A DNA stretch of 64,000 nt from a bacterium (GTDB lineage: Bacteria; Ratteibacteria; UBA8468; B48-G9; JAFGKM01). Shown piece by piece: positions 1 through 43,127 of the stretch. The stretch is from NCBI GenBank assembly GCA_023230585.1, contig JALNXB010000001.1:69847-133846 (forward strand), read 5' to 3'. The notes beneath the pieces are model-generated. The model was not told where the DNA came from. It worked only from the letters and a program-made list of their open reading frames with translations, and searched no databases. The translations under genes and the position numbers were made by a program. How positions within the stretch are numbered: position 1 is the stretch's first letter; every line of letters begins with the position of its first letter.

Positions 1-8
1 ATTAGACT

Positions 9-80
9 CCCCCTTATATGTCATTCCGGATTTATTCGGAATCTCGTTTTTATTACTTCATAGATAACAAAATGAGGCGT
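9..80. repeat. Partial copy of dispersed modular intergenic repeat (module 'tgtcattccggatttattcggaatc' hairpin + 'gataacaaaatgagg')
   Basis: Same motifs recur at ~10512, 17496, 56581, 43150(rc) in this window. Confidence 0.5.
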
Positions 81-90
81 TCAGGATGGA

Positions 91-2048: not shown

Positions 2049-2542
2049 AAAGAATGAAAAAACTTTATATAGATTATGATATATTGTTGCAAACAGAAGA
2101 GGTTTTCCAATGTAGTTATAAGTTACACCCTTATAACGATGGAATAACTACTTTAAGAGAAGAGATTGCTTTTATGTTTGCGTGCCGTAGATGTGAAGAT
2201 TATCCTTGTGTTAACTCTTGCCCTAACGGTGCCTTAAAAAGAGAGGCAGGACTAATTAAACGTTCAAATTTAGTATGTATAGCTTGTAAGACCTGTTCAA
2301 TTGCTTGTCCTTTTGGGACTATATTGGTAGAATTACTCCCTTACCTTGTGGGTAGATGTGATGAGTGTATTGGGCGCCTTAAAAAAGACGAGGTGCCTTT
2401 ATGTGTTGCCAGATGTGAAAGTGGAGCGATACAGTATCTAAAAGAAGATGATATTACCGACAAAACTAACCTTTATAAGATGGGAGAAAAGATTATTGTA
2501 AGAGTATTTAACTGGCTTAATTTTTATGGAATTAAAAAATGA
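2039..2542 (+). CDS. Cys-rich 4Fe-4S ferredoxin-type (polyferredoxin-like) protein
   Basis: Multiple CxxCxxCxxxCP-like motifs (CRRCEDYPCVNSCP, CIACKTCSIACP, CDECIG...CVARC). Confidence 0.55.
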   Translation: MGLKRMKKLYIDYDILLQTEEVFQCSYKLHPYNDGITTLREEIAFMFACRRCEDYPCVNSCPNGALKREAGLIKRSNLVCIACKTCSIACPFGTILVELLPYLVGRCDECIGRLKKDEVPLCVARCESGAIQYLKEDDITDKTNLYKMGEKIIVRVFNWLNFYGIKK

Positions 2543-3468
2543 GTATAGGTAACTATCTAATATTTATCATTAGAAGTTTCTTTCTTTTAAACGTATTAGG
2601 TCTGGTGGCTATGTGGATAGATAGAAAATTGACAGCGCGCCTACAATTTCGTGTGGGACCGCCGTGGTATCAGAATTTTGTAGATTTTTTTAAACTGGTA
2701 GGTAAGGAAGTACTAATTCCAGAGAAATCTAACGTTTTTATGTTTGTTTTTGCTCCACTGCTTGCTCTTCTCTCGGCATCAATGGCTGGAACGATAATGT
2801 TGTTTGCTATGAAGTTAGGCCTATCTTTTGCTGGGGATATAATTCTTATTGTATACCTGTTGACCATTCCTTCTTTCGCTATAATATTGGGCGGTAGCGC
2901 TTCTGGGAATGTTCTTGCAGCTGTTGGTATTAGTAGAGAAATAAAACTTCTTTTGGGGTATGAGTTACCTTTTGTTTGCGCTATTATTATCCCTGCCTTA
3001 AAGAGCGGCTCAACAACCTCTTTTTTTACAATTATCCAACACCAACAGACAAACGGTATGTTTATAGGTTCTATCTCTGGTATTATAGGGTTTGTTATAG
3101 GGTTACTTTCTTTACAAGGTAAACTTGGGCTTGTGCCGTTCGACCTTGCAGAAGCTGAAGGTGAACTTGCAGCTGGTGCTTTTATGGAATATTCTGGGAT
3201 TCTGTACGGTTTTTTTAAATTAACAAAAGCAGTTCTGTTTATATCAGGACCATTGTTTCTTGTATCTCTATATTTTGGAGGGGTATCTACCTCCTCGGTG
3301 GGTGGCACAATAACTGGTATTTTAAAGTACCTTTTAGTATTAGTTTTAATAACCCTTATTAGAAACACTAACCCAAGGTTAAGGATAGACCAAGCTTTAA
3401 AATTGTTTTGGGGTTGGCTAACTCTTTTAGGGTTGGTAGGTATACTTTTAGCATTTATGGGGAGATAA
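2539..3468 (+). CDS. Membrane subunit, NuoH/HyfC/MbhM-like, of group 4 hydrogenase
   Basis: Polytopic membrane protein ~309 aa, position in Nuo-like module before small subunit; overlapping start with upstream gene. Confidence 0.6.
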   Translation: MSIGNYLIFIIRSFFLLNVLGLVAMWIDRKLTARLQFRVGPPWYQNFVDFFKLVGKEVLIPEKSNVFMFVFAPLLALLSASMAGTIMLFAMKLGLSFAGDIILIVYLLTIPSFAIILGGSASGNVLAAVGISREIKLLLGYELPFVCAIIIPALKSGSTTSFFTIIQHQQTNGMFIGSISGIIGFVIGLLSLQGKLGLVPFDLAEAEGELAAGAFMEYSGILYGFFKLTKAVLFISGPLFLVSLYFGGVSTSSVGGTITGILKYLLVLVLITLIRNTNPRLRIDQALKLFWGWLTLLGLVGILLAFMGR

Positions 3469-3884
3469 TGAACTTAAAGTTAAAAGCATTAAAAAAATCT
3501 TTGTGGGTCTACCATTTATCGGGAGGTTCTTGTAATAACTGTGATATAGAGATACTTGATTGTCTTACACCAAGGTTTGATATTGAACGTTTTGGTATGG
3601 TGCTTGTTGGTAGCCCAAGACACGCTGATGCTCTTTTATGTACAGGTATTGTAAATAAAAAATGTGTAGAAAGGATAAAAGAGGTATACCATCAGACAGC
3701 TAAACCGTGTGTTGTTGTAGCGATAGGCGCCTGTGCTTGTTCAGGCGGAATTTTTAGGGACGGGTACCAGATGGGAGGACCGTTAAATCAAATTATACCG
3801 GTAGATATTTATATACCTGGCTGTCCACCTAAACCTGAAGCAATGATTGCTGGTATAGTTAAACTTCTGGAGAAACTCAAATGA
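3468..3884 (+). CDS. [NiFe]-hydrogenase small subunit, NuoB/MbhJ-like (start chosen at taATG overlap with upstream stop; ORF track starts at 3408)
   Basis: GGSCNNCDIE, GACACSGG and GCPPKPE motifs (NuoB/20 kDa family Fe-S ligands). Confidence 0.7.
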   Translation: MNLKLKALKKSLWVYHLSGGSCNNCDIEILDCLTPRFDIERFGMVLVGSPRHADALLCTGIVNKKCVERIKEVYHQTAKPCVVVAIGACACSGGIFRDGYQMGGPLNQIIPVDIYIPGCPPKPEAMIAGIVKLLEKLK

Positions 3885-4327
3885 AGTTATTGAAAACCTT
3901 AAAAGCAACACTTAAAAATTATATAAAAGATGTAAAAGTTCATAATGAACGAAGAATATATATAACAATTGATAGTAAATTTCTTAAAGAGTGCGTTAAT
4001 ATTCTTTTTCGCCAACTTAATGGAAGGTATATTATTATTTCCGGAGTTGACAATTTTGATTCTTTTGAATTGATATACCATTTTGGGTTTGACTTGTTTG
4101 GTGCAATAGTATCGTTACGGGTTTTTCTTGAACGTAACAATCCTGAAGTTGTATCTCTTGTAGACACTATTCCGGGCGTTTTTTATATTGAAAGAGAGAT
4201 TTGGGAACTTTTAGGGATAAATTTTGTAGGTCACCCTAACCTTAAACATTTCTTGTTAAGAGACGATTGGCCTAAAGAAGATTATCCTTTACGTAAAAAC
4301 AGTAACAATATAACTGGTGACAAATAA
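3881..4327 (+). CDS. NuoC/30 kDa-like subunit (MbhK-like)
   Basis: Size and position between small and large hydrogenase subunits; overlapping start/stop. Confidence 0.5.
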   Translation: MKLLKTLKATLKNYIKDVKVHNERRIYITIDSKFLKECVNILFRQLNGRYIIISGVDNFDSFELIYHFGFDLFGAIVSLRVFLERNNPEVVSLVDTIPGVFYIEREIWELLGINFVGHPNLKHFLLRDDWPKEDYPLRKNSNNITGDK

Positions 4328-4330
4328 ATA

Positions 4331-5530
4331 ATGAAAAACAAAAAGAAGAAAGTTGTTGTGCCAATAGGTCCTTACCACCCTCTACTTGAAGAACCAGAGT
4401 TTTTTGCTCTATATTGTGAAGGAGAAAAGGTTGTTGATGTGGAATGGCAAGCAGGTTACAACCATAGAGCAATAGAAAAGTTGTCTGAAGGTAAACATTG
4501 GGACCAGGTAACGTTTCTTGTGGAAAGGATATGTGGGATATGTTCTACCTCGCACCCTTTTGCGTATTGTAACGCTGTGGAAGACCTGTTGGGTATATCT
4601 ATACCAGACAAAGCCAAATATATTAGGTGCGTAATTGGAGAGATGGAGAGAATACATAGCCACCTTTTATGGGTAGGGCTTGCTGGTCATTTTCTTGGGT
4701 ATAACACAATTTTTATGTGGGCGTGGAAATATAGAGAATCTATTCTTGAGATGTTTGAGATAATAACAGGTAATAGAAACCATTATGCTATGTTTAAGAT
4801 AGGTGGTGTTAGACGAAATATTGAAGATGAAGATATCCCTACTTTAAGAAAAGTGTTGACCAACCTTGCCGGGAAACTTAAGATGCTTACTAATGCGGTT
4901 CTTGATGACCCTGTTTTAGGTGTTCGTTTGAAAGGTGTGGGTGTTTTAACAGAAGAGCATATTAAAGATTTTGGTGCGATAGGTCCTGTTGCAAGGGCAA
5001 GCGGTGTTTCAGTAGATGTAAGAAAAGATGACCCGTACTCTGCATACCCTTTTTTAGATTGGAAGGTTATAAAGACACAAAACGGGGATGTTTTTGATAA
5101 AGCTGTAGTAAGATTGCTTGAATGTATGGAGTCGGTACAAATTATTGAGCAAGCATTAAATTTTATTGAAGGCAACGATGGAGAAATACTAAATGAGGTT
5201 AGAGAAATACCTCCAGGCGAGGGGATAGGTCACCACGAAGCTCCTCGTGGCGAGTGTTTCCATTATGTAAAAAGCGATGGAGCCAACAGCCCAGTTAGAC
5301 ATAAAATACGGGCTCCCAGTTCTAACAATATACCTACCTTTAAAGCAAGTTGTATAGGACAAATGATATCAGATGTTGCAATTATCCTTGCCGCTGTTGA
5401 CCCGTGTTACTGTTGCACAGAAAGGGTTGCAGTATACGATATTGAAAAGAAGAATAAGAAGAGGTACGATTTTTCTGATTTGGTTGAACTCTCAAGAAAA
5501 AGAACTGAAGAATTGAGAAGAGAGGTATAA
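4331..5530 (+). CDS. Group 4 [NiFe]-hydrogenase large subunit (NuoD/EchE/MbhL-like)
   Basis: N-terminal RICGICSTSH (RxCGxCxxxH, L1) and C-terminal DPCYCCTER (DPCxxCxxR, L2) Ni-Fe ligand motifs both present. Confidence 0.8.
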   Translation: MKNKKKKVVVPIGPYHPLLEEPEFFALYCEGEKVVDVEWQAGYNHRAIEKLSEGKHWDQVTFLVERICGICSTSHPFAYCNAVEDLLGISIPDKAKYIRCVIGEMERIHSHLLWVGLAGHFLGYNTIFMWAWKYRESILEMFEIITGNRNHYAMFKIGGVRRNIEDEDIPTLRKVLTNLAGKLKMLTNAVLDDPVLGVRLKGVGVLTEEHIKDFGAIGPVARASGVSVDVRKDDPYSAYPFLDWKVIKTQNGDVFDKAVVRLLECMESVQIIEQALNFIEGNDGEILNEVREIPPGEGIGHHEAPRGECFHYVKSDGANSPVRHKIRAPSSNNIPTFKASCIGQMISDVAIILAAVDPCYCCTERVAVYDIEKKNKKRYDFSDLVELSRKRTEELRREV

Positions 5531-5537
5531 AAAAGGA

Positions 5538-6155
5538 ATGAGAAAACCTAAACTAAGGGAACTTAAAGAAGCTATATCAAGTATTTTTTCAAAACCTTTT
5601 ACAACAGAATTCCCTTTTAAAACTCATACTCCAGCAGAAAGGTTTAGAGGAAAACCTGAATATAATCAAGATACCTGTGTAGGTTGTGGGGCTTGTTTTC
5701 AAGTCTGTCCTTCTAACGCTATTGAGATGATAGATACAGTTGTTGAAGGTAAAGGCAAACGTGTACTTGTTCAACATCCTAAGGATTGCCTGTTTTGTGG
5801 AGAATGCGAAAGAAACTGTATCACTGAAACAGGTATACAGCTTACTAAAGTTTTTGATGTATCTTACTTTGACGAGAAAAAAGTTCAAAGTAGTATAGAG
5901 CATAACCTTGTTGTTTGTAAGCATTGTAAAGAGGTTATAGGGGCAGAAAAACATATCCTCTGGACCTTAAGGAAACTTGGTAACCTTGCATATTCTCAAC
6001 CTGTGATGATATCTGGATTGATGTCAGATTTGGAGCTAAAGGTTGAGGTAGAAGAGACCGTGGTAGCCCCTATACAGAGAACAGATATCCTTAAGGTTGT
6101 ATGCCCTAAATGTAGGCGTCTTGCTTTTATAACAGATGAGAAGAGGGAGAGGTAG
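5538..6155 (+). CDS. 2x[4Fe-4S] ferredoxin subunit (NuoI/MbhN-like) with extra C-terminal Cys pairs
   Basis: CVGCGACFQVCP and CLFCGECERNC motifs; further CKHC...CPKC pairs C-terminal. Confidence 0.6.
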   Translation: MRKPKLRELKEAISSIFSKPFTTEFPFKTHTPAERFRGKPEYNQDTCVGCGACFQVCPSNAIEMIDTVVEGKGKRVLVQHPKDCLFCGECERNCITETGIQLTKVFDVSYFDEKKVQSSIEHNLVVCKHCKEVIGAEKHILWTLRKLGNLAYSQPVMISGLMSDLELKVEVEETVVAPIQRTDILKVVCPKCRRLAFITDEKRER

Positions 6156-6161
6156 TCATAA

Positions 6162-7583
6162 ATGTATATTGACCAAAAAATGTTGATGTCAGTTTTGCTG
6201 TTGCCTTTTGCTGGCGCACTTATAGTACTGCTGTTACCAGCAAGGAGATCCATTATAACAGGTTTTTTCGTTCTTTTAACACAATTAGTTTGCTCTTTTC
6301 CTATTATTAACACTATGGTTGGGTGTGGTCCTGTACAAGTACAAGAGCGTTTTAGGGAAAACACAGTTGAGGTGAGTATTCTTAATGTCTTTTTTAGATG
6401 TACTTCATTAAGTTACATCTTTGCTTTGACTTCTATTTTTGTGGGAGTAGTTATATACCTCTTTTCTCTGGGTTATTTTAAGGAAGAGAAGGTTGAAGAA
6501 CAAAAGAAATTTTCTTTCTGGGGGTTGCTCTTTATAGGGAGTATGATGGGGGTGATATTTTCTGATAACCTTATCTCTCTATACCTTTTTTGGGAACTGG
6601 CAGGGTTATGTTCTTGGAAACTTATAGGTTTTTACAGAAAAGACGAGCACCTCTTAAAAGCAGATAAGGCCTTTCTTATTACTAGCGCTGGTGCCGGGTT
6701 GATGATGTTAAGTTTTGCGTGTATATATGCGCAGACGGGAACCTTAAGTTTATCTCAGTTATCTTGTCAGCAAGTATCTCCTTTGGTGTTTACTCTTTTT
6801 TTTATAGGGGTATTAACAAAGTCAGCCAGTTTCCCTTTTCATACGTGGTTACCCGACGCATCTGTTGCCCCTACTCCCGTAACGGCCTTTCTTCATGCTG
6901 CTGTCCTTGTGAAGATAGGTGTCTATGGGCTTTTTAAGATTTTTGTTAGAACACTTTTGGTTTCAGGGTGGACATTATGGGCGGGGTGGCTGGCTCTCTT
7001 TAGTAGTATTGTTGCTGGTATTATTGCTTTAAGAGAAGAAGATATAAAGAAGATACTTGCTTTTTCTACTGTTAGCCAACTTGGTTTAATGATAGCCGGG
7101 CTGATGGTATTTAATATGACGGCAGCTGAGGGTGTGTTAATATTTTATTTTGCTCACGCTCTGGGTAAAGGAGGGCTTTTTCTTTGTGCCGGTGTTATTG
7201 AGAGGGTATTTGGTACAAAAAATATTAAAGAGATGGGTGGTTTAATAAAAGAGATGCCAGCACTAACTTTTGCTTTTTTTATAGGGATGCTCTCTGTAAT
7301 AGGGATACCACCTTTACCGGGTTTTTTTGGTAAATTAGAGATTATAATAGGAATGGTTCAAAGTAAACAGATTATTTATGCTCTCTCTGCTATTCTTTCA
7401 TCGGTTTTAACTCTTTTATATATGTTCAGGTTTTTCTTTTATGTGTTTATGGGGGAAAAAAGAGAGGTTTTGAGAGAAAATAGAGTTGGGTTTAAACCTA
7501 TGCTTACTTCTGTCCTGTTACTTGCAATAGTTTCTCTTGTTTTGGTTATAATTATGACAGGGCACTATTTTAAATTTCTTTAG
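6162..7583 (+). CDS. MrpD/NuoM/N-like antiporter-type membrane subunit (MbhH-like)
   Basis: ~473 aa polytopic protein with HTWLPDA motif characteristic of NuoL/M/N-MrpA/D family. Confidence 0.65.
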   Translation: MYIDQKMLMSVLLLPFAGALIVLLLPARRSIITGFFVLLTQLVCSFPIINTMVGCGPVQVQERFRENTVEVSILNVFFRCTSLSYIFALTSIFVGVVIYLFSLGYFKEEKVEEQKKFSFWGLLFIGSMMGVIFSDNLISLYLFWELAGLCSWKLIGFYRKDEHLLKADKAFLITSAGAGLMMLSFACIYAQTGTLSLSQLSCQQVSPLVFTLFFIGVLTKSASFPFHTWLPDASVAPTPVTAFLHAAVLVKIGVYGLFKIFVRTLLVSGWTLWAGWLALFSSIVAGIIALREEDIKKILAFSTVSQLGLMIAGLMVFNMTAAEGVLIFYFAHALGKGGLFLCAGVIERVFGTKNIKEMGGLIKEMPALTFAFFIGMLSVIGIPPLPGFFGKLEIIIGMVQSKQIIYALSAILSSVLTLLYMFRFFFYVFMGEKREVLRENRVGFKPMLTSVLLLAIVSLVLVIIMTGHYFKFL

Positions 7584-7658
7584 TTTTTATGTAATTATGT
7601 TATATCAAACGGATATGATTAGTTGTAGAGAATTATATATACCAATGGAGGGAAAAAG

Positions 7659-9494
7659 TTGAATCTTAATGTGTGGTTTCTACCTGTAATAATAAGTTTT
7701 GGAATATCTTTACTTCATCTTGTTTCTCCCAGGATGGGCAGAAAGTATAGAAGATGGGTCTCGCTATTTGGAGGGTTCGCTATTCTTGTGAGTTGCTTAT
7801 ACTCTCTTTATATTAACAATGATTATCTTTACTCTTGGCAAAACTTTGGTCTTCTTTTTGGTATACTTATCTCAGCTATCTCTCTTTCAAGTATCTCTTT
7901 TTCTCAGTGGTACAATCCTGACGACGGTTACGCCTATGACTCCCTGCTCTTTCTATTTATTGGTGCAATGAACGGGGTGGTCTTATCTCACTCTTTTATT
8001 GCCCTATTCGTATATTGGGAAATAATGACCATTGCAAGTTTCTTTCTTGTTCTTTTTAATGATACCATCGAAGCAAGGCAGGCATCAGTTAAATACATAA
8101 TTATGACAGGAGCGGGGAGTATGATGCTTCTTTTTGGAATTATTGGTATCTTAGTTGGCACTACCATTATCGGTGACAATATTGTATGGGAACATATCTT
8201 TTTTGCTTCTATACTTATTGGCACAGGCATTAAAGCTGGCATTATTCCTTTACATACTTGGCTTCCTGATGCCCATCCTGCAGCTCCAACACCTGTCTCC
8301 TCTATGTTATCAGGGATAATGATTAAGACAGGTGTTTATGCTTTTATAAAACTATATTTTGGAATATTTAACCCTTCGTGGTCATTATCTTGGGATGTAA
8401 TCCTAACTATAATAGGTGTTTTGACTCTTGTAGGCGGGGTGTTCCTTGCTCTTATCCAGAGTGATATAAAAAGACTTCTTGCTTACCATAGTATCAGCCA
8501 GATAGGGTATATCTTTCTTGGTATATCTTGCGGTACAAGTATAGGTCTTGTTGGTGCTATCTACCACACAATTAACCACGCCATATTCAAAAGTTTACTC
8601 TTTCTTGGCGCAGGAGTCTTGATAAAAACAACAGGTTCTCGATACCTACAAGATTACGGAGGGCTTGCTAAAAAATTACCCTTCACTTTTGCTGTTATGA
8701 CTGTTGCTTCAATGTCTATATCAGGGATACCTCCGTTTAATGGTTTTATTTCAAAATGGATAATCTATCAAGCGCTCCTAACTAAAGGAAACAGTTTGTC
8801 TATTTTTGCTATGGTTGCTGCTCTATTGGGTAGCGTTTTAACACTTGCTTCTTTTATAAAAGTTTTGAACGATTCGTTTATGGGGGTAAGAGAGAAAGAA
8901 CTAAAAGGAGAAAGATTGGAAAGTTCTCCCTTTATGAATATACCTATGTTTATTTTAGCACTGGGCTGTTTTATTTTTGGAGTTTTTCCAGGGTTGGTAT
9001 TAGAGAGAATTGTTTTTCCCTCTATTGGAGAGTATGTGAACCTTAACATTTCGCATATAAAATTGGTTGGTATGTATGGGTGGTTGGTCATAGTTTTATT
9101 TATATTTGTACTTGTGTTTACCAAGTTTTTTAAAAAAGTAAGGATAGTGAAAAACTTTGTAGGTGGAGAACTTTTATCTTCTCAAGATACATCTTTTGAT
9201 GGTACCCATTTTTATGGCACAATAAAAGATATTCCTTTAATTAAGATATTCTATTTGGCAGAAGAGAGGGGTGCCCTTGATATTTACCAGAGAGCTCTAC
9301 AATCTCTTCCCAAAACAGGTAGATTCTTTAAAGTTATAGGGGTTAGAATGGTAGACAACGTGTACCATAGAGGAAACCATATCTTAAACAGGTGGGTATC
9401 TAAACTTAAAGTGATACAGAACGGGCTGCTTGCAAAGTATATTATATGGATTTTTGCAGGGATTATACTATTAATGGAGGTTATAAGAAGATGA
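7659..9494 (+). CDS. MrpA/NuoL-like antiporter subunit
   Basis: 611 aa polytopic protein with LHTWLPDAHPAAPTPVS motif. Confidence 0.65.
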   Translation: MNLNVWFLPVIISFGISLLHLVSPRMGRKYRRWVSLFGGFAILVSCLYSLYINNDYLYSWQNFGLLFGILISAISLSSISFSQWYNPDDGYAYDSLLFLFIGAMNGVVLSHSFIALFVYWEIMTIASFFLVLFNDTIEARQASVKYIIMTGAGSMMLLFGIIGILVGTTIIGDNIVWEHIFFASILIGTGIKAGIIPLHTWLPDAHPAAPTPVSSMLSGIMIKTGVYAFIKLYFGIFNPSWSLSWDVILTIIGVLTLVGGVFLALIQSDIKRLLAYHSISQIGYIFLGISCGTSIGLVGAIYHTINHAIFKSLLFLGAGVLIKTTGSRYLQDYGGLAKKLPFTFAVMTVASMSISGIPPFNGFISKWIIYQALLTKGNSLSIFAMVAALLGSVLTLASFIKVLNDSFMGVREKELKGERLESSPFMNIPMFILALGCFIFGVFPGLVLERIVFPSIGEYVNLNISHIKLVGMYGWLVIVLFIFVLVFTKFFKKVRIVKNFVGGELLSSQDTSFDGTHFYGTIKDIPLIKIFYLAEERGALDIYQRALQSLPKTGRFFKVIGVRMVDNVYHRGNHILNRWVSKLKVIQNGLLAKYIIWIFAGIILLMEVIRR

Positions 9495-10021
9495 TACTAA
9501 ATATACCTCTCTTATCTTCTCTGTTGGTTCTTATGGCTGTTGGTTCTGTTATTGCAATATCAGCAAAAAGTCTTACCTCTTCTGTTGTGGCAATGGGTAC
9601 AGCAGGCCTTATTCTGAGTATCCTCTTTCTTATTCTTGGAGCGCCTGATATTGCTATAGTACAGGTCTTTGTGGAGATTGTAGCGTTAATCGTTCTATTA
9701 TCAATTATTTCACGAGAATCTTCTGCGGATATGTCTTCGTCGGGTATGTACGCAGGGTTTGTGCTACTTATTTTTAGTATATTTCTTTTTACTTTTATGC
9801 TTAACTCTAAACTGTTTTTAAGACCTTTTGGGGAACCGCTTATGACTATGGGCTCGGGGTACCTAAAATCTTCGGTAGAAACATTAAAAGGAGCGGATGT
9901 TGTCAACTCTATAGTACTTGATTTAAGAGGTTATGATACACTTGGTGAAGCTACAATTATTTTTACTGCTATATTGGGGGTATTGGCGATGTTGCGGCTA
10001 AAAGGGAGGATTGATGGATAA
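9446..10021 (+). CDS. MrpA C-terminal-domain-like / MbhD-E-like small membrane subunit
   Basis: Hydrophobic 191 aa; follows MrpA-like gene; ends ...LKGRIDG immediately before repeat insertion. Confidence 0.4.
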   Translation: MDFCRDYTINGGYKKMILNIPLLSSLLVLMAVGSVIAISAKSLTSSVVAMGTAGLILSILFLILGAPDIAIVQVFVEIVALIVLLSIISRESSADMSSSGMYAGFVLLIFSIFLFTFMLNSKLFLRPFGEPLMTMGSGYLKSSVETLKGADVVNSIVLDLRGYDTLGEATIIFTAILGVLAMLRLKGRIDG

Positions 10022-10026
10022 AGGGA
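9999..10026. repeat. 28-bp direct repeat (left copy) 'taaaagggaggattgatggataaaggga'
   Basis: Perfect identity with 10785-10812 by eye. Confidence 0.8.
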
Positions 10027-10784
10027 CAAAAAAGTATGTGGTGTCTACTCACTCTGGAACTACGGTGCATACACCTTCTACACAACAATCGGGCACTCTG
10101 AGAACTTACCCTTCTGCATAAAAGGCATCTCCGAAGGGTTTAACAGGCTCAGTGTAGTAGAACAAAAGGCTTGAACCTTTTGTTAACAGCCCGATTCTTG
10201 CTTGAGTTGTAGTAGCACCTCGTAATTCGTTCATAGACACATACTTTTTTAACGAAAAGAAAAACAAAGGCAATGATAAAAGCATAAAAGAAAAGCGTAT
10301 GGGGTGTTTACTCACTCTGGTACTACGGTGCATACACCTTTCCTTTTTTGCCTTCTACCCTTAGGGGATGTTTGGGGTAGTAAGTCCCCAAGAGTTTGCA
10401 AAGAGGTTAATGGGATGAGGTTTATCCGCCGAAGCTTGCATTTTAGCGCAGGTGGAGGGGTAGTTAGCAACTTAACCAAAAACGAAAGACGTAATGATAA
10501 AAGATGAGATTGCCCCCTGCATGTCATTCCGGACTTGATCCGGAATCTCGTTTTTACCGCTTCTGTTAAGTGGGTTAGGTTAGAGATCCTGAAACAAGTT
10601 CAGGATAACAAAATGTGGGAGTAGGGGAACAAAAGGCTTGAACCTTTTGTTAACAGCCCCCCATTCCGCCTTTTGTAGTTAGTCTTGCGAGTTTTACCCG
10701 CCGAAGCCTTGGCGTAGGAGGGGCTTCGTAACGTGGCAATCTCGCCGAAGGCGGAAAAGGAATGGGAAGGAATAATAGTATGGT
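10027..10784. mobile_element. 758-bp composite block of dispersed repeat modules inserted between two operon genes (non-coding, MITE-like)
   Basis: Contains duplicated modules 'ggtgtttactcactctggtactacggtgcatacacc' (x2), hairpin 'caaaaggcttgaaccttttgttaacagc' (x2), 'gtcattccggacttgatccggaatctcgtttt', 'ccccattccgccttttgtagtt...', 'gcggaaaaggaatg'; all recur elsewhere in window; flanked by 28-bp direct repeats. Confidence 0.6.
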
Positions 10785-10812
10785 TAAAAGGGAGGATTGA
10801 TGGATAAAGGGA
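10785..10812. repeat. 28-bp direct repeat (right copy)
   Basis: Identical to 9999-10026. Confidence 0.8.
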
Positions 10813-11267
10813 TGAGCGAGATAGTTAAGGGTATTTCAAAAATAGTGTTCCCATTTATTATACTTTTTGGCATTGCTCTTGTTTTATATGGGCATATTAA
10901 TCCAGGGGGCGGATTTTCAGGTGGGGCTGTTTTGGCTGGAGGGTTTGTACTGCTTCTGCTTGCTTTTGGGAAAGATTATGTGTTTAAAGTTTTCCCTCCA
11001 AAAATTGCTCGGCTGATTGATAGTTTAGGGGCTTTAGGGTTTTTGTGTATTGCTGTTTTAGGGTTTACAGGAGGCCACTTCTTTTATAATTTCCTCAATA
11101 AAGGCCGGCTCTTCCATTTATGGAGTGGTGGTACGATGGTATTTGCTAATATTGCTATAGGTATGAAAATTTGTTCAGCTCTTTTTGTTGGCATTTCTGT
11201 TCTGTCTATGGCTCGCCTTGAAAAGAAAGAGAATGGGCCTATATATAGGCAGAGCGGGGAGGAATAA
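10800..11267 (+). CDS. MrpB-like antiporter subunit
   Basis: PGGGFSGGAVLAGG motif typical of MrpB/MnhB; ORF track starts at TTG 10797, ATG at 10800. Confidence 0.55.
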   Translation: MDKGMSEIVKGISKIVFPFIILFGIALVLYGHINPGGGFSGGAVLAGGFVLLLLAFGKDYVFKVFPPKIARLIDSLGALGFLCIAVLGFTGGHFFYNFLNKGRLFHLWSGGTMVFANIAIGMKICSALFVGISVLSMARLEKKENGPIYRQSGEE

Positions 11268-11617
11268 TGGTTATATATCTTCTGGTTGCTCTTATTTTCT
11301 TTATAGGGTTATATGGTATTGTTGCTAAAAAGAATATCATAAAAATTATTATAGGGGCTAACATTGTGGGTTATGCAGTTAATCTGTTGTTTATAGTGAT
11401 GGGGTATCAATGGGGCGGGATGGCTCCGGTGTTAACTGAAAAGACCAAACCAGATGAATTCTATAAGTTAGCCGTTGACCCTTTACCTCAGGCACTTGTT
11501 TTAACATCAATAGTTATTGACCTTGCTTTCCTTGCTTTTTTGTCTGCACTTGCTATCCGTCTTTATGAAAAGTATGAAACCTTTGATATAGAAAAGATGC
11601 GGAGGTTAAAAGGATGA
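11267..11617 (+). CDS. MrpC/NuoK-like subunit
   Basis: 116 aa, three predicted TM helices, taATG overlap, position in Mrp order. Confidence 0.55.
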   Translation: MVIYLLVALIFFIGLYGIVAKKNIIKIIIGANIVGYAVNLLFIVMGYQWGGMAPVLTEKTKPDEFYKLAVDPLPQALVLTSIVIDLAFLAFLSALAIRLYEKYETFDIEKMRRLKG

Positions 11618-13119
11618 ACCTTATTGTTATGCCGGTGGTTATTTATTTAGGTTCTGCTTTTGTTATACCGTTGTTATTTAGGAAGAACGAGGAGTTGGCA
11701 GGGAAATTTACCTGTATATGCACGTTTCTTGCGTTTGTTATATCTATCCTTATAGGAATCAATGTTTTTTCTCAAGGTAGATTTATATCTTTTGCAGGCG
11801 GTTGGGAAAATCCCGTAGGTATAGCTTTAATGGTTGACCCTTTATCTGCGTTATTTCTTATAGTATGCAATTTTATAACATTCTTCATACTACTATATTC
11901 AGATACCTATATGAAAAAATATACAGGTAGAATATATTTTAACTCTCTCTTTATGTTAATGCTTGCAGGTATGAACGGTGTACTTATAAGTATGGATATA
12001 TGGAACATTTTTGTCTTTTTTGAAATAGCTTCAATATCGTCTTTTATACTTGTTGCTTTTGGTTTGAAGGCAGAAGAGTTGGAAGCATCATTAAAATATA
12101 CTATTATGGGGTTCTTGGCATCAACTATGATACTTTTTGGCATGGCTATGATATACGGGCTTACTGGGACCTTAAACCTGCCTGATATTGCATTTGCTTT
12201 ATCTAAATTACCTCCTTCTCATTTATGGTTCACTGTTGCTCTGCTTTTGTCTGGGTATATATTAAAGATGGCTCTTGTACCTTTCCATACTTGGCTACCA
12301 GACGCTCATTCTATGGCACCTGCACCAGTGTCGGCTATATTGTCGAGCCTTTTTATAAAAATTATAGGGTTTTACCTTGTGATACGTGTTTCTTTGAACC
12401 TTTTTGGGGATATATACCAGATAAAGACAGCGCTTATTGTGTTGGGAGTGGTGTCTATGATACTTGGCGGTATTATGGCTTATGGACAACAAAATATCAA
12501 ACGGTTGTTTGCCTATTCTACTATCAGTCAGATAGGGTATTGTGCGATTGGAATAGGTATTGGAGGTTACTTGGGATACCTTGGGGCTATTATGCATTTT
12601 ATTGGGCACGCTTTTTCTAAATCACTACTATTTTTAGATATAGGCGCAATTGAATATATGACAGGCACCACTGATTCTAATGATTTGGAAGGAATCAATG
12701 AGCAGATGCCTTTTACAACCTTATTTTCAAATATGGGAATGTTCGGAATATCAGGTATTCCTCCTTTAGGTAATTTTTGGAGTAAACTGATTATTATACT
12801 TGCAGCTGTAAAAGCAGGATACTTTGGGGTTGCTCTTTTATCAGTTTTTGTTGCTGTCTTAACTCTCGGGTATTTTCTTAAACTATTAAGGAACGTCTAC
12901 TACAACAAACCTAAAACCAAAGAAGAAAAAAAAGAAGCTCCTTTGGGGTTGTTGGTGCCAATGGCAACCTTATCGTTTATGGTGCTATTTACAGGGGTTT
13001 TTCTGATACCTTCTATAAGAAAAACTGTTTTAGATAAAACCGTTGGAGTGATGGAAAACTTTTCGTATAAAAGTTTACATATTTCGGAAACCGATGAAAG
13101 TATATTGTTAGAAGAGTAA
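11614..13119 (+). CDS. MrpD/NuoN-like antiporter subunit
   Basis: 501 aa with FHTWLPDAHSMAPAPVS motif. Confidence 0.7.
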   Translation: MNLIVMPVVIYLGSAFVIPLLFRKNEELAGKFTCICTFLAFVISILIGINVFSQGRFISFAGGWENPVGIALMVDPLSALFLIVCNFITFFILLYSDTYMKKYTGRIYFNSLFMLMLAGMNGVLISMDIWNIFVFFEIASISSFILVAFGLKAEELEASLKYTIMGFLASTMILFGMAMIYGLTGTLNLPDIAFALSKLPPSHLWFTVALLLSGYILKMALVPFHTWLPDAHSMAPAPVSAILSSLFIKIIGFYLVIRVSLNLFGDIYQIKTALIVLGVVSMILGGIMAYGQQNIKRLFAYSTISQIGYCAIGIGIGGYLGYLGAIMHFIGHAFSKSLLFLDIGAIEYMTGTTDSNDLEGINEQMPFTTLFSNMGMFGISGIPPLGNFWSKLIIILAAVKAGYFGVALLSVFVAVLTLGYFLKLLRNVYYNKPKTKEEKKEAPLGLLVPMATLSFMVLFTGVFLIPSIRKTVLDKTVGVMENFSYKSLHISETDESILLEE

Positions 13120-13131
13120 AAGGAAAAAGAA

Positions 13132-13617
13132 ATGAGATACTTTTTTATGTTTATAGTTTTGTATATTATCTGGCTAATGGTAACTTGCAATATGGAGGTT
13201 GCCAATTTTTATGCTGGGGCAATCGTTGCTTTAATTGTTACAGCGTTATTTGGGAAAGAATTTCCTTACCACCCTAAACATACTTTTCAAATAAAGAGAT
13301 ACTTTGCATTTATTAAATTTTTAGGTGTCTTTTTTGTGCAGGTTGTACATGCTAACTTCATAATGGCTTATAGGGTTTTAAGTCCAAACTTACCAATTAA
13401 ACCGGGGATAGTAGAGATACCTCTCTATCTTAAATCCCCTCTGGGTAGAGTAATTCTTGCTAACGCTATCACTCTTGCGCCGGGCACTTTTACTATGGAC
13501 ATCACAAGTGATACACTTATATTACACTGGATATACGTACAGACAGAAGACCCACATAAAGCAGAAGAAATTATATGCGGTAGGTTACAAAGAATTCTTA
13601 AGGAGGTATTTGAATGA
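13132..13617 (+). CDS. MrpE-like subunit
   Basis: 161 aa, N-terminal hydrophobic; position in MrpA-G order. Confidence 0.45.
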   Translation: MRYFFMFIVLYIIWLMVTCNMEVANFYAGAIVALIVTALFGKEFPYHPKHTFQIKRYFAFIKFLGVFFVQVVHANFIMAYRVLSPNLPIKPGIVEIPLYLKSPLGRVILANAITLAPGTFTMDITSDTLILHWIYVQTEDPHKAEEIICGRLQRILKEVFE

Positions 13618-13868
13618 TTGCCTTATTAGTTTTTTTAACAGTGTGTGTTGCTTTGTGTGTCTACAGAATTTTTGTTGGACCTACTTCTGCAGACAGGATG
13701 GTAGGGATAGATATTCTTGGTATAATAGTTGTGATATTTTGTGTTCTATTGGCGTTATACACAGGTTTTGATTATTATATGAATATAGGTATCGCTTGGT
13801 CAATTATTGGTTTTGTTAGTACAATCACTTTTGCAAAGTTTCTTGAAGGGAGGCATTTAGATGAGTGA
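13614..13868 (+). CDS. MrpF-like subunit
   Basis: 84 aa hydrophobic, overlapping start/stop with neighbours. Confidence 0.45.
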   Translation: MIALLVFLTVCVALCVYRIFVGPTSADRMVGIDILGIIVVIFCVLLALYTGFDYYMNIGIAWSIIGFVSTITFAKFLEGRHLDE

Positions 13869-14181
13869 AGTTATTGGGCAAATATTTCTTGTTGTAGGGT
13901 TATGTTTTACATTTTTTGGATGTGTAGGGTTGGTAAGAATGCCTGACGTATACTGCAGGTTGCAGGCGGCAACAAAATGTGTTACTCTGGGAACAGGTAG
14001 TGTTTTGATAGGGGCTCTTATAATAACAGGGTTTACTGGTATAGGAATAAAATCTTTGGTATGTTTTATATTTCTTTTTTTAAACTCACCAACGGCTGCA
14101 CACGCTCTTGCTAAATCAGCTAAAGCTGCTGGAGTGCCTGTCTGGAAAAAAACTGAACCTGATAAAAACAAAAATCTCTAA
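13861..14181 (+). CDS. MrpG-like subunit
   Basis: 106 aa, N-terminal TM helices; end of Mrp module. Confidence 0.5.
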   Translation: MSEVIGQIFLVVGLCFTFFGCVGLVRMPDVYCRLQAATKCVTLGTGSVLIGALIITGFTGIGIKSLVCFIFLFLNSPTAAHALAKSAKAAGVPVWKKTEPDKNKNL

Positions 14182-14224
14182 CAACCTTTCTTAAAGGTCT
14201 TTAGCAACATTGTAAAAAAATAAA

Positions 14225-14494
14225 ATGCATGAACTTGTATTGATTTCAAATCTTTTAAAAATTCTTAACAAAATAAAAGAAGACGATAGGAATATATATT
14301 CTTTTCTGGCAATACATATTACTGTAAACCCATATAGTTGTATAGATGAGGAAAATCTTAATTTTATGTTTCGCTCTGTAGTCGGAAAAGAAGAGATATA
14401 TAAAGATGCTAAAATATGTGTAACAAGAGGGGCTAACCCTGCTGATAGAGAGTTTATACTTGATAATGTGGAGGTAGAGGTTTATGAAGAATAA
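14225..14494 (+). CDS. hypA: HypA-like hydrogenase nickel-insertion protein, N-terminal Ni-binding domain only (no Zn-finger CxxC...CxxC)
   Basis: Starts MHEL (conserved MHE Ni site) and resembles HypA N-domain; only two Cys in 89 aa; overlaps hypB start. Confidence 0.45.
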   Translation: MHELVLISNLLKILNKIKEDDRNIYSFLAIHITVNPYSCIDEENLNFMFRSVVGKEEIYKDAKICVTRGANPADREFILDNVEVEVYEE

Positions 14495-15602
14495 GGTTAA
14501 AACAATTAAGGTAGGAGCAAGCATATTGAAAGAAAATGATAAAATATCTGAAGAGAATAGGTTATTATTTGAAAAAAACAATGTGTGCTGTATAAATGTT
14601 ATGGGGTCTCCCGGTTCGGGTAAAACATCTCTACTTGAGAAGACAATACCTAAACTTAAATTAAAAAATATAAAACCTGGGGTTATAGAGGGAGATATAG
14701 AAGGAACGTTAGATGGTGAACGGCTTTTAAAATATGGTATACCTGTGGTGCAGATAAACACAGGGGGAGCGTGTCATCTGGATGCCAATATGGTAAAGAA
14801 AGGCCTTGAGAACCTCAATTTGAATGAGATAGATATCCTATTTATTGAAAATGTTGGCAATCTTGTATGCCCTGCTGCGTTTACTCTCGGCGAAAGTTAC
14901 AACGTTATTATTTCAAGTTGCCCAGAAGGAGAGGAAAAACCTTTAAAATATCCTTTGATGTTTAATATTTCTAATATATGCCTCCTTAATAAAATGGACT
15001 TGTCTGAACATTTGGATTTTAATACCAAACAATTTAAAGAGTACCTATTTAAGGTTGCGCCAGATACTAAACTTATACCGCTATCTTCAAAAACAGGAGA
15101 TGGTTTTGAAGAATGGTTAGATTTTCTTTACTTGTCTGCCCCTGAAAATAAAAAAGAACGTATAGTGGTGGTAGGTTTGGGGGATAGGATGAAAGGGGAC
15201 GATGCAGCAGGATGCGAAATAGCTGAACAACTTCATAAAGAGGATATCTCAGAGAATGTAAAAATAATTAATGCTGAAAACGCTATAGAAAACTATATTG
15301 GCGTGATAAAAGGATTTAAGCCAGATAGAATATATTTTGTTGACGCTGTTGACTTTAGTGGAACTCCAGGAGAAGTAAGACTTATGGAGGCAGGTTCTCT
15401 GGTAAGCAACACCTCTTCAACACATACTTTAGCTTTGCCGTTGATAATAGAAAATATTAAAGCAGAAACTTCTGCAAAATGTACTATCGTTGGAGTTCAA
15501 CCTAAAAAGATATTGTTTTCACAGAAGATTTCAAATGAGGTTAGGGAAGGTATTATGAATGCAGTTAAAATGTTGAGGGAAATATTATGGAAAAAGAGAT
15601 AG
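14484..15602 (+). CDS. hypB: Fusion of HypB nickel-GTPase and hydrogenase maturation endopeptidase (HycI/HybD-like)
   Basis: P-loop GSPGSGKTSLLEKT, CHLDANMV, ENVGNLVCPAAF (HypB) followed in same frame by VVVGLGDRMKGDDAAGCEIAEQL (HycI/HybD N-terminal signature). Confidence 0.75.
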   Translation: MKNKVKTIKVGASILKENDKISEENRLLFEKNNVCCINVMGSPGSGKTSLLEKTIPKLKLKNIKPGVIEGDIEGTLDGERLLKYGIPVVQINTGGACHLDANMVKKGLENLNLNEIDILFIENVGNLVCPAAFTLGESYNVIISSCPEGEEKPLKYPLMFNISNICLLNKMDLSEHLDFNTKQFKEYLFKVAPDTKLIPLSSKTGDGFEEWLDFLYLSAPENKKERIVVVGLGDRMKGDDAAGCEIAEQLHKEDISENVKIINAENAIENYIGVIKGFKPDRIYFVDAVDFSGTPGEVRLMEAGSLVSNTSSTHTLALPLIIENIKAETSAKCTIVGVQPKKILFSQKISNEVREGIMNAVKMLREILWKKR

Positions 15603-15952
15603 TTATGAAGTATGCAAATAAAGAAATCAAAATTTTAATGAAAGATAGCCGTTTAGCAAAAGCAATATGTGAGAAATTACCGTTTAAGGTGAATGTAAAT
15701 GTTTGGGGTAGAGAAATCTATTTTGAGATACCTGTAAAGTCCAGTATAACAGACTCTGTAATAGAACTTGAAGAAGGAGATGTGGCTTACTGGCCAGATG
15801 GAAGGTGTCTATGCTTTTTTTTCGGACCCACCCCAGCAAGCACAGGAACAAAACCAAAAGCTGCCGGTTATGTTGAGGTGGTTGGAAGGGTTACTTCTGA
15901 TTTGAAAGAACTTGAAAAGGTGAAATCAGGAGAAGAGGTGGTAATTGAATGA
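15587..15952 (+). CDS. Hypothetical protein, possibly cyclophilin-like (TM1367-type) fold
   Basis: Motif AYWPDGRCLCFFFGPTP recalled from cyclophilin-like DUF family; weak. Confidence 0.3.
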   Translation: MEKEIVMKYANKEIKILMKDSRLAKAICEKLPFKVNVNVWGREIYFEIPVKSSITDSVIELEEGDVAYWPDGRCLCFFFGPTPASTGTKPKAAGYVEVVGRVTSDLKELEKVKSGEEVVIE

Positions 15953-15965
15953 AGACGTAAAAAAC

Positions 15966-16145
15966 ATAAAAGACCCCCTCACCTTGCATCCTCTCCCCCA
16001 AAAGGAGAGGCAAATAAGGAAAGATTGTCATTCTGGGGTTTATCCCGAGTACCCTCGAGGGGCTTAACAGGCTCATAGTAGTAGAACAAAAGGCTTAAAC
16101 CTTTTGTTAACAGCCTCCCCATTCCGTCTTTTTTAGTTGACTTTC
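15966..16145. repeat. Dispersed modular intergenic repeat copy
   Basis: Modules 'gaccccctcaccttg...ctctccccc' (rc of module at 56497/17578), 'gtcattctggggtttatcccgagtaccctcgagggg', 'caaaaggcttaaaccttttgttaacagc', 'ccccattccgtctttt'. Confidence 0.6.
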
Positions 16146-16174
16146 TACTTATTTGGTAGTATAATACAAAAAAG

Positions 16175-17467
16175 TTGATACTTTTATGCAATATAATGGA
16201 AGAATATAAAATGATTAGAGATATTTTGATTATTCAAAAGCGAGAACTGGAACAAAAACAGAAAGAAAGGTTTATTGAGAGGCAGGTTGATTATACAACA
16301 CCTATGAAAAACGATTTAGTAAAGGTGATTATTGGTCCTCGCCGGGCGGGAAAATCTTCACTTGCTTTCAATATGCTTAAATCATTAAAAGAAAAATTTG
16401 GTTATGTCAATTTTGATGATGAAAGACTTGTTGGGATTAAAAATTATGATGATATCATTAATGCTATTGAGTCTGTTTACGACAACCCAAAATTTATTTT
16501 GTTTGATGAAATACAGAACCTTACCAAATGGGAACTGTTTGTAAACCGTTTACAAAGGCAAGGGTACAACCTTGTTATTACTGGTAGTAACTCAAATCTT
16601 TTAAGCAAAGAACTTGCTTCTCATCTTACCGGTAGACATATCTTGATAAATATTTTGCCTTTTTCGTTTGCGGAGTTTTTAACAGCAGGGGCAGAACATC
16701 TAATCCTAACAGAAAGCGAAAAGAGAGCAAAACTTTCAGACTATATTTACTGTGGTGGATACCCTGAACCTCTTTTTAAACAACTGGATGAAAAAGAATA
16801 TCTTGCTACTCTTTATAACTCAATTATTTATAAAGATATCATTAGCCGATTTAAAATTCGTATTGTGCCAGCAATAGAAAACCTTGCGGGATATCTTTTA
16901 TCTAATACAGGTAGAGAGTTTTCTTATAATACATTGTGTAAAATTTCTGGTTGTGGAAGTGTCCATACAGTAGACAAGTATCTACAATACCTTGAAGAGT
17001 CTTTTCTATTTTTTAAAATACATAGGTTCTCTCCTAACTTTGAAGGGCAACTAAGTTCTAATAAGAAAGTCTACTGTATTGATAATGGTTTTATTCAAAG
17101 CAGATCTTTTAAGACAGAAGACTATATTTCAACCCTATACGAAAATGTTGTAGCGGTTAAACTCAAGAAAGACGAGATGAACGGAGGGGCAAAGGTATTT
17201 TACTGGAAACACCCTCTTCAACAGGAGGTTGATTTTGTCCTTAAAGATGGTGTAGAAGTAAAGAAATTGATACAGGTATGTTGGAATATTGAAGATGTAC
17301 AAAAAAGAGAGAAAAAAGAAAAATCTTTGATGAAAGCAGGTAATCAAGTAAAATGCGATAACTTGTTTGTTCTTAATGATAATTATGAAGGGGAAGAAGA
17401 ATTTACATGGTTTGGGGTAACCAGAACAATTAAATATATTTCTTTATGGAAATGGTTACTTGAGTAA
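16175..17467 (+). CDS. AAA+ ATPase of the COG1373/DUF4143 type
   Basis: Walker A GPRRAGKSSLA, Walker B ILFDEIQ; C-terminal domain typical of DUF4143 proteins; start may be internal Met. Confidence 0.65.
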   Translation: MILLCNIMEEYKMIRDILIIQKRELEQKQKERFIERQVDYTTPMKNDLVKVIIGPRRAGKSSLAFNMLKSLKEKFGYVNFDDERLVGIKNYDDIINAIESVYDNPKFILFDEIQNLTKWELFVNRLQRQGYNLVITGSNSNLLSKELASHLTGRHILINILPFSFAEFLTAGAEHLILTESEKRAKLSDYIYCGGYPEPLFKQLDEKEYLATLYNSIIYKDIISRFKIRIVPAIENLAGYLLSNTGREFSYNTLCKISGCGSVHTVDKYLQYLEESFLFFKIHRFSPNFEGQLSSNKKVYCIDNGFIQSRSFKTEDYISTLYENVVAVKLKKDEMNGGAKVFYWKHPLQQEVDFVLKDGVEVKKLIQVCWNIEDVQKREKKEKSLMKAGNQVKCDNLFVLNDNYEGEEEFTWFGVTRTIKYISLWKWLLE

Positions 17468-17487
17468 AAATGTACCTCTTTTGTGAA

Positions 17488-17835
17488 GGGATTCCCCCTT
17501 ATATGTCATTCCGGATTTATCCCTCGGGGATACTTGGAACAAGCCGCCGAAAGCGGAAAAGGAATGTACCTTCTTTGCCCTCTAACCCTTGGGGGAGAGG
17601 GATCAAGGGTGAGGGGGTCTTTTGCTTTACGCTTTTGTTTTTATACGTTACTCCCCCCATTCCGTCTTTTGTAGTTAATCTTGCGAGTTTTACCCGCCGA
17701 AGGCGGAAAAGGAATGCACCTTCTCTTTGCCTTCTACCCTTGGAGTGTTTGGAGTAGTAGTCCCCAAAGGGTTGCAGAGAGTTTAATGGGATGAGGTTTA
17801 TCCCTCGAGGTACTCGGTAGACAAGCCTTTACAAT
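17488..17835. repeat. Dispersed modular intergenic repeat copy (composite)
   Basis: Modules 'ccccttatatgtcattccggatttatccc', 'gcggaaaaggaatg' (x2), 'ccctctaacccttgggggagagggatcaagggtgaggggg', 'ccccattccgtcttttgtagttaatcttgcgagttttacccgccgaagg', 'ttctacccttgg...gtttaatgggatgaggtttatccctcgagg'. Confidence 0.65.
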
Positions 17836-17865
17836 GACAAACAAGGCGCAAGGAATGAAACGTTA

Positions 17866-22465: not shown

Positions 22466-22499
22466 GGCTTTTTTAAAATCAGTTACTTTTTGGAAGGTC

Positions 22500-22640
22500 T
22501 GTTTACAACCCGTTCATCAGAGGTTCTCGGGATAAACCTTGCCGTTAGATGGGCAAAGAATTGGACAATACGCAGTTCCTTTAGATGAGTGGGCTTGAGG
22601 CAAACTTCTCTATAAAATGAACGGTGTTTACTAATGATTT
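22500..22640. repeat. Dispersed modular intergenic repeat copy
   Basis: 'ttctcgggataaacc' (rc of ggtttatcccgag module) and 'gaacggtgtttactaatgat' (cf. 'ggacggtgttcactgaagat' at 30385 and 'ggacggtgttcgctg' at 43232). Confidence 0.5.
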
Positions 22641-22714
22641 ATTGTAGAGAATAGGACATTAAAAGGCGAAAGGGAATAATTTGTTATAAATATTTATGAG
22701 ACGAAATACTTTCA

Positions 22715-43077: not shown

Positions 43078-43127
43078 CTTCTTCTCCTTCTTTTCGTATA
43101 CAGTATGTTGTAGTTAGTATTATGAAC

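Follow-up and report, generated by a model that had tools for sequence, protein, structure and literature searches.

The 64,000-nucleotide stretch of contig JALNXB010000001.1 analyzed here (the window), from an uncultured Omnitrophota-like bacterium, carries a group-4 [NiFe]-hydrogenase operon in which two neighboring genes of the Mrp-like membrane arm are separated by 758 bp of non-coding DNA (10027-10784, + strand). We found these 758 bp to be a single copy of a modular dispersed repeat element, inserted in this lineage specifically: the segment is absent in relatives, has collinear paralogues at other loci of the same genome, and is flanked by a direct repeat of the junction on which it sits. 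The upstream gene (gene A, 9491-10021, +), taken from the list of open reading frames (ORFs), encodes an Mrp-like subunit with MbhD and MbhE domains (Pfam PF13244 and PF20501), and the downstream gene (gene B, 10800-11267, +) encodes an intact MnhB-domain subunit (Pfam PF04039, with support from alignment and cluster members). Both genes stayed intact because about 30 bp of the junction was duplicated. As to how the insert was joined, we hold with moderate confidence that recombination or template switching guided by microhomology, rather than a transposase, was responsible.

A lineage-specific insertion on an overlapping stop/start junction

A reading of this DNA made from its letters alone (the sequence-only reading) had described perfect 28-bp direct repeats on either side of the 758 bp, and these proved to be a unique pair. 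In the window there are exactly two occurrences of the 28-mer TAAAAGGGAGGATTGATGGATAAAGGGA, 9999-10026 and 10785-10812, on the + strand in each case and with 0 mismatches, and no further match with up to 3 mismatches was found in the 64 kb (0.00 expected from 100 shuffles). In a repeat search the pair lengthened to 31 nt (9996-10026 and 10782-10812) with a single mismatch, GGC versus GGT, where copy 1 has a C instead of a T at 9998; the T, kept in copy 2, is ancestral. Copy 1 (9996-10026, +) contains the final seven codons of gene A (LKGRIDG) and its TAA stop. Copy 2 (10782-10812, +) holds the ribosome-binding site and start of gene B, as had been proposed, with the Shine-Dalgarno sequence GGGAGG at 10790-10795, the ATG at 10800, and the first four codons of the gene.

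Relatives of gene A were encoded at 36 loci in a scan of species-representative genomes, the closest of them (64-83% amino-acid identity) in metagenome-assembled genomes (MAGs) labelled Candidatus Omnitrophota or simply "bacterium". Genes A and B abut or overlap directly in 12 of 12 relative loci at 61-83% amino-acid identity, and the junction there, ...AAAGGGAG(G/A)ATTGATGAATAAGGGGATGAGCGAG..., is equivalent to a single 28-mer. In the ancestral layout the gene B ATG lies 5 nt before the gene A stop (ATGGATAA), which is the classic arrangement for termination-reinitiation. The tight coupling through an overlapping stop and start that had been postulated for the ancestor is supported, all relatives having a single junction.

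A closer relative was reached via the MnhB protein cluster in contigs from anaerobic-digester metagenomes (L041-L043), which are 91% identical to the window in nucleotide sequence upstream of the insert and 96% identical downstream of it. Their junction is likewise single (gcgatgttgcggTTAAAAGGGAGGATTGATGGAcAAAGGGATGAGCG), and the 758 bp are absent from these contigs as from the 12 other relatives. BLAST segments of L041 against the window stop at 10026, resume at 10782, and have 31 nt of L041 in common, as in the textbook case of an insertion that duplicated a 31-nt flank. When metagenomes were scanned with MnhB, the only yield was three relatives at 73-74% identity, with no further strains among them.

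The genes on either side of the insert are intact and under purifying selection, with dN/dS values of 0.03-0.16 when genes A, B, C, and D are compared with those of the empty-site relative, a measure that includes the time before the insertion. The gene A stop codon in L041 is CAA instead of TAA, and gene A there (1143-1694) is 7 codons longer and overlaps gene B (1666-2133) by 29 nt, from which the A/B junction itself can be said to evolve quickly.

Architecture of the insert and its repeat family

Read from left to right, the insert begins with a 263-bp repeat unit that includes an A-rich linker (10028-10290, +) and continues with a second such unit truncated to its first 50 nt (10291-10340, +; 90-93% identity to 10028-10077). 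Within the first unit lies a 223-bp MITE-like core (MITE, miniature inverted-repeat transposable element) with perfect 13-bp terminal inverted repeats, AAAAAAGTATGTG (10028-10040) and CACATACTTTTTT (10238-10250). The variable internal modules GCCTTCTACCC... and GGTTAATGGGATGAGGTTTATCC... follow (10341-10513, +), with paralogues at 17726-17803, at 43186-43206 (inverted), and at 629-790 of L048, another locus of the same genome. A hairpin sub-element (10514-10622, +) with the inverted ends CCCC..TGTCAT and ATAACAAAATGTGGG, also written CCCC..TGTCAT...ATGACAAAATGGGG, comes next; it has further copies at 9-85 and 56586-56660 of the window and in loci L048, L051, and L052, and it includes a terminator-like hairpin (10526-10546, +) that is followed by CTCGTTTTTA.

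To the right of this sub-element are the hairpin module AACAAAAGGCTTGAACCTTTTGTTAACAGCC and the CCCCCCATTCCG... module (10623-10706, +; copies at 10160-10192, 16084-16138, and 17653-17702), then a nested 36-nt piece (10707-10742, +), and finally the conserved right-end module CGCCGAAGGCGGAAAAGGAATGGGAAGGAATAATA (10743-10777, +), which is 93% identical to the right end of the L050 copy and is found also at 17545-17566 and 17695-17716. The 36-nt piece, present in L050 and L051 as well, has the 8-nt direct repeat CGCCGAAG on its flanks (10699-10706 and 10743-10750). An uninterrupted version of the module that it splits exists at 17692-17716, and the piece looks like a small insertion into a hairpin loop.

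The GC content of the insert is 0.41-0.47, compared with 0.33-0.39 in most of the flanking coding sequence, and its RNA folds better than shuffled versions (z = -4.9). Searches of four insert ORFs against Pfam gave no credible match; Rfam gave none in 9900-10900 at E <= 1 and, across the whole window at gathering thresholds, only a tRNA-Asp located elsewhere.

For nearly all of the insert, paralogous copies exist elsewhere in this genome, within the window or at other loci. Parts of it recur in six other intergenic regions of the window (1-90, 15953-16210, 17468-17865, 22466-22714, 43078-43317, and 56395-56808), and the other loci were reached via spurious ORFs of the insert, with about 90 kb of the genome read in total. 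Copy A in L048 (331-905) is collinear with window 10018-10617 over approximately 590 bp at 88-91% identity, and copy C in L048 matches window 10021-10225 at 94.6%. The L050 copy has a left part that is 89% identical over 336 nt and a right-end module, CGCCGAAGGCGGAAAAGGAATGGGA(A)G.AATAATA, as in the insert, although its internal modules differ. The left end is therefore common to the window, L048, and L050, and the right module to the window and L050. The 263-bp unit occurs in tandem, at 263-nt spacing, in the window, L050, and L051, and L052 has three of them (2843-3515), 91-94% identical, giving a range of 1.2 to at least 3 units. Since 19 protein clusters derive from spurious ORFs of this unit, the repeat family has many copies.

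The left end and the right module of the element are thus conserved, and between them lie tandem 263-bp units and hairpin modules that vary. The sequence-only reading had seen in the 758 bp modules of a dispersed repeat family with no recognizable ORF, which agrees with the Pfam and Rfam results; its picture of loose modules gave way to that of a full-length element with conserved ends, since its collinear copies at other loci make clear that the modules of the insert are no random heap. The modules gave no matches in the relatives' loci (L001-L036 and L041-L043), and the family therefore looks lineage-specific within the DNA available; scans of viral contigs with two module patterns returned zero matches. 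No description of such repeats in Omnitrophota was found in the literature, and this modular family, with its 263-bp tandem core, its strict orientation bias, and its tendency to break short-read assemblies, appears to have been undescribed so far in this Omnitrophota-like lineage.

All of the family clusters that could be oriented, approximately 11 of 11, are co-oriented with the gene on their 3' side. In the window these are 1-90, 10027-10784, 15960-16140, 17480-17830, 43150-43215 (inverted), and 56464-56715, and at other loci L048 331-905, 4496-4738, and 10318-10525, L050 2835-3401 (-), L051, and L052 (-). This uniformity suggests either selection for one orientation in transcripts or a strand bias of insertion. 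Three copies start at, or within 2 nt of, the TAA stop of a co-oriented upstream gene (TAA(A)GGGAC...; L048 10318-10325, L048 326-331, and window 10019-10026), which could reflect a preference for gene 3' ends or an element that supplies the stop codon.

Among known systems, the architecture most resembles that of the pneumococcal BOX elements and of BOX/RUP/SPRITE clusters, which combine end modules with variable internal tandem units, are rich in hairpins, and occupy intergenic sites, including those within operons (PMC10969869). Like BOX, the family described here is non-coding, lineage-specific, modular with conserved ends, hairpin-rich, and often clustered or nested; the conserved terminal modules and variable number of tandem units make it BOX-like in architecture only. 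The two are unrelated in sequence, the internal unit is much larger here (263 bp), a long junction duplication is not described for BOX, and the element here occupies an overlapping stop/start junction.

Similar mosaics are formed by the BIMEs of E. coli (REP mosaics) and the Correia/NIME elements of Neisseria, in which short palindromic modules lie at transcribed intergenic or intercistronic sites and can affect mRNA stability, processing, and termination. The likeness to these is again one of architecture; the insert has no sequence similarity to them and no Rfam match. No pair of REP palindrome and RAYT was identified, with no genome search made for RAYT and no comparison of the modules with the REP consensus, and no Correia-type 26-bp inverted repeats with TA duplication were identified.

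Origin of the duplicated junction

Left ends of the element were compared by aligning six real copies (from the window and L048) beyond the left junction itself, together with L048 copy A and L050. An ATAAA-type stretch stands before GTATG in all aligned left ends except that at window 56470, and the closest left end, L048 copy C, reads AATAAGGGACAAAAAAGTATG, with the same GGGAC as the window. The final 4-9 nt of repeat copy 1 (ATAAAGGGA, 10018-10026, +) are common to the native junction and to the conserved left terminus of the element. At the right junction, the filler GTATGGT (10778-10784, +) ends in GGT (10782-10784), the native bases preceding the 28-mer, which may be a 3-nt microhomology or part of the duplication.

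From these junctions, we favor with moderate confidence a non-transposase insertion of one element copy onto the stop/start junction, by replication template switching or by illegitimate recombination with another element copy. Synthesis would have left the target at the 4-9 nt shared by the junction and the element's left end, approximately 755 nt would have been copied from an element elsewhere, and re-entry would have taken place about 31 nt upstream of the exit point, at the short GGT microhomology. Because re-entry would lie upstream of the exit, the insert would have the interval between the two on either side. Had the joining been confined to the left microhomology, gene B would have been separated from its ribosome-binding site and start; both genes would be kept only if the second join fell upstream of the Shine-Dalgarno sequence, and selection would preserve such a product. 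The event would thus have survived because of the duplication, with copy 1 keeping the C-terminus and stop of gene A and copy 2 preserving gene B's start and first codons along with its ribosome-binding site. A templated insertion, microhomology at both junctions, and a duplicated exit/re-entry interval would all be in keeping with events of the fork stalling and template switching or microhomology-mediated break-induced replication (FoSTeS/MMBIR) type, a mechanism class rather than an element family that is proposed here from the junction sequence alone.

A strain variant bears on how this insertion is to be viewed. L040, a 959-bp Logan contig (ERR13731073), has 99.3% identity to the window over genes B and C; upstream of its 28-mer stands the hairpin sub-element's right half, followed by 91 nt without a match in the data. 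Its positions 1-125 correspond to window 10585-10784, with the 91-nt unmatched stretch replacing 10623-10784, and the 28-mer boundary falls at the same nucleotide as in the window. The insert may have been remodelled up to this boundary in L040, or the site may have been hit twice. Directly before the 28-mer, L040 has an ATG in the old gene A frame (MLKGRIDG*).

Several observations weigh against a template switch or illegitimate recombination. A single random template switch does not predict the L040 arrangement, in which different upstream sequence meets the same 28-mer boundary. The microhomology has a minimum of 4 nt (GGGA) and a maximum of 9 nt, its exact length depending on the donor copy; the element terminus is rich in A and G, and of the 9 nt only 7-8 are matched in other copies. 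Aligned globally with other copies, the reconstructed empty target scored no better than shuffles. The flanks of only about 10 copies were seen, without an empty-site comparison, and short or decayed target duplications could escape notice in them. Finally, the window's own contig is the only one that was shown to cross the insert from end to end. Homologous recombination over a long tract was also considered and was rejected, as alignment scores between the empty target and the element equal the shuffle mean.

The sequence-only reading had named two possible origins, a MITE-like insertion with a long target duplication and a recombination event. The second fits better, since the end of copy 1 coincides with the element's own terminus and no long repeats flank the other copies examined, and we regard classical transposition as unlikely. 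It would require a non-autonomous, MITE-like element mobilized by a trans-acting transposase with a 19-31-nt stagger, which would leave a true long target-site duplication. In its favor, a perfect direct repeat of target sequence flanks the insert, and the 10028-10250 core has perfect 13-bp terminal inverted repeats that are conserved in other copies. Furthermore, the family shares with MITEs a small size, many copies, and the lack of a transposase or other coding capacity (no Pfam match; seven clusters in the window, copies in L048 and L050-L052, and the 19 protein clusters). However, the inverted repeats bound only the 223-bp sub-element, and the ends of the 758-bp insert (left CAAAAAAGTATG..., right ...AATAATAGTATGGT) are not inverted repeats of each other. 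No long flanking direct repeat was found at five window clusters, three L048 copies, L050, L051, or L052, so that the fixed short target-site duplication of MITEs is replaced by 28-31 nt at this copy and none at the others, and the repeat here is 3-10 times the usual length and in part identical to the element's end. No transposase was found next to the clusters tested or among the window genes scanned.

Only one transposon group, the IS1634 family that includes IS1549, is well documented to make target duplications of tens to hundreds of base pairs (8-514 bp; PMC2266710). The 28-31 bp seen here fall within this range, but no transposase or matching ends were found, and the operon copy alone has a long repeat, whereas elements of the IS1634 type would have long duplications at most copies. 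Integrative elements that target the 3' ends of genes, such as tRNA-gene att sites, are similar in having direct repeats of tens of base pairs and in reconstituting the interrupted gene end so that its function is kept. They differ in that no integrase is present here and the repeat is the ancestral target rather than an att core found with other element copies.

A history in two steps, which we think doubtful and somewhat less credible than transposition, would begin with slippage, giving a tandem duplication of 28-31 bp of the junction that served as a neutral spacer in which modules then accrued one by one. The mosaic nature of the insert, with nested pieces such as the 36-nt piece and its 8-nt flanking repeats (10699-10750), is consistent with such accretion, as are the differing content but unchanged 28-mer boundary of L040 and the presence of module clusters of similar size in other intergenic regions. 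By contrast, the terminal modules of the insert are those of the independent L050 copy and its first 590 bp are collinear with L048, both of which point to arrival as one unit. The first insertion would also have had to strike the exact boundary of two tandem copies, and a tandem duplication without an insert was seen in no relative.

Consequences for expression and support from independent assemblies

The assignment of the host operon to hydrogenase/Mrp genes, made at first from the letters alone, was confirmed by Pfam domains and motifs. The large subunit (4331-5530) has the nickel-ligand motifs RICGIC (N-terminal CxxC) and DPCYCC (C-terminal DPCxxC) expected of the class, and Pfam assignments in the operon comprise NuoH/B/C/D-like, Proton_antipo_M, MbhD/E, MnhB, C, E, F, and G, and HypA/B/HycI/HypF, with hypA, hypB-hycI, and hypF lying downstream of the Mrp-like membrane arm. 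The insert splits the ancestral overlapping stop and start of this operon, so the separation of two coupled genes suspected in the sequence-only reading is real. The Shine-Dalgarno sequence and ATG duplicated in copy 1 now open a 35-aa decoy ORF (10014-10121, +) that runs from copy 1 into the element, has no Pfam match, and is not a called gene on record. The gene B start lies 786 nt downstream of the copy-1 ATG position, with its own Shine-Dalgarno sequence.

It had also been suggested that the insert could carry a promoter or a terminator. No canonical sigma-70-like promoter was found on the + strand of the insert; a terminator is represented by one weak terminator-like sense-strand hairpin with a T-run (10526-10556), the surrounding 66 nt of which fold at -14.7 kcal/mol. 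With no promoter and only this hairpin in the insert, the downstream genes most likely depend on read-through transcription. Judging from the layout, termination-reinitiation coupling between A and B has likely been lost, gene B is likely translated from its own Shine-Dalgarno sequence on a read-through transcript, and this transcript likely carries a structured leader of about 0.76 kb with the single weak hairpin. Two short ORFs end at the gene B start, one at 10733-10807 (in the old gene A frame, with AGGAGG upstream) and one at 10780-10800 (with a UGAUG overlap). These leader ORFs could partly restore A/B coupling, although they are short enough to have arisen by chance.

Most likely, the element is selfish or near-neutral and not adaptive, since every relative manages without the insert, the content of which differs between close strains. 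The phenomenon is of a well-known kind, the insertion of a selfish repeat. At this locus it indicates that such DNA can colonize an overlapping, translationally coupled junction inside an essential energy-conserving operon, and the junction-preserving duplication illustrates how an overlapping gene pair can tolerate it. The natural filled and empty alleles offer a ready test of the contribution of translational coupling to assembly of the Mrp/hydrogenase complex.

It is improbable, in our view, that the insert has instead been retained as a useful intercistronic regulatory spacer, acting as an attenuator, an RNA-processing or stability element, or an internal promoter. Such a spacer would set the ratio of the upstream hydrogenase and Mrp subunits to the downstream MnhB-G and Hyp proteins, with the leader ORFs re-creating coupling. 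The sense-strand hairpin and T-run at 10526-10556, the strong structure of the RNA, the co-orientation of every family cluster seen with its 3'-side gene, the two leader ORFs that end at the gene B start, and the ATG directly before the 28-mer in L040 would all suit a regulatory role. On the other hand, the absence of the insert from all relatives, including one at 91-96% nucleotide identity, means that the operon works without it, and its content is not conserved between close strains. The lack of a canonical promoter speaks against a regulatory role as well, as do the weakness of the hairpins (about -10 to -15 kcal/mol), most of which are not significant when compared with shuffles, and leader ORFs that may have originated by chance.

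The L040 boundary also raises the idea, to which we give slightly less credence again, that entry or exchange of the family at this site is site-directed and repeatable, with the duplicated junction acting as an att-like cassette boundary. If this were true, the repeat family would settle inside operons by copying their coupling signals, possibly restoring coupling through leader ORFs.

Independent assemblies reproduce both sides of the insert. Contig L037 (ENA ERZ27247376) equals window 1-10106 at 100%, and L047 (Logan SRR6484323; 10,050 bp) has the same gene coordinates as the window; both recover the left junction. The right junction was recovered in L038 (ERZ27247376; window 10061-21617) and L039 (ERZ27247346; window 10100-15448), and a variant right junction in L040. 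In total, the order gene A, 28-mer, element sequence was present in three assemblies, and the order element sequence, 28-mer, gene B in four assemblies from different samples. L037 and L038 share 46 identical nt where they overlap inside the element, a stretch that has no second copy in the 64-kb window and approximately 91% identical paralogues at other loci. That the insert is an artefact, a chimeric join made through repeat copies, is extremely improbable: three short-read assemblies do break within it (at 10050, 10061-10106, and 10100) and the window's own contig alone crosses it, but such breaks are expected of a repeat, and a misjoin could at worst alter its interior, not its existence.

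Repeat clusters of this family start or end independent short-read assemblies and thereby limit MAG contiguity in this lineage, and operon predictions and inferences of gene coupling are affected by the elements as well. Position 1 of the window is the same starting base as that of a Logan contig.

By alignment, the gene B product of the window is identical to NCBI protein MCK9265334.1, encoded on a 158-kb MAG contig, and a protein identical to the gene A product was found in independent assemblies; exact look-ups returned no record for the 35-aa decoy ORF, the window MnhB, P0025, or P0030. A gene for an AAA_14/DUF4143 ATPase (16211-17467) lies among the hydrogenase maturation genes with repeat clusters on both flanks. 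It was considered as cargo of a composite element, an idea that was rejected because the gene is syntenic in relatives.

Two further repeats in the window lie within coding sequence. A 231-nt direct repeat at 82% identity (35862-36092 and 36955-37185) falls within the adjacent ORFs 35814-36914 and 36907-37938, which are probably tandem paralogous genes. Three 65-nt repeats at a spacing of about 260 nt (31434-32017) lie within ORF 31211-32608 (- strand), the product of which is probably a protein with repeated domains.

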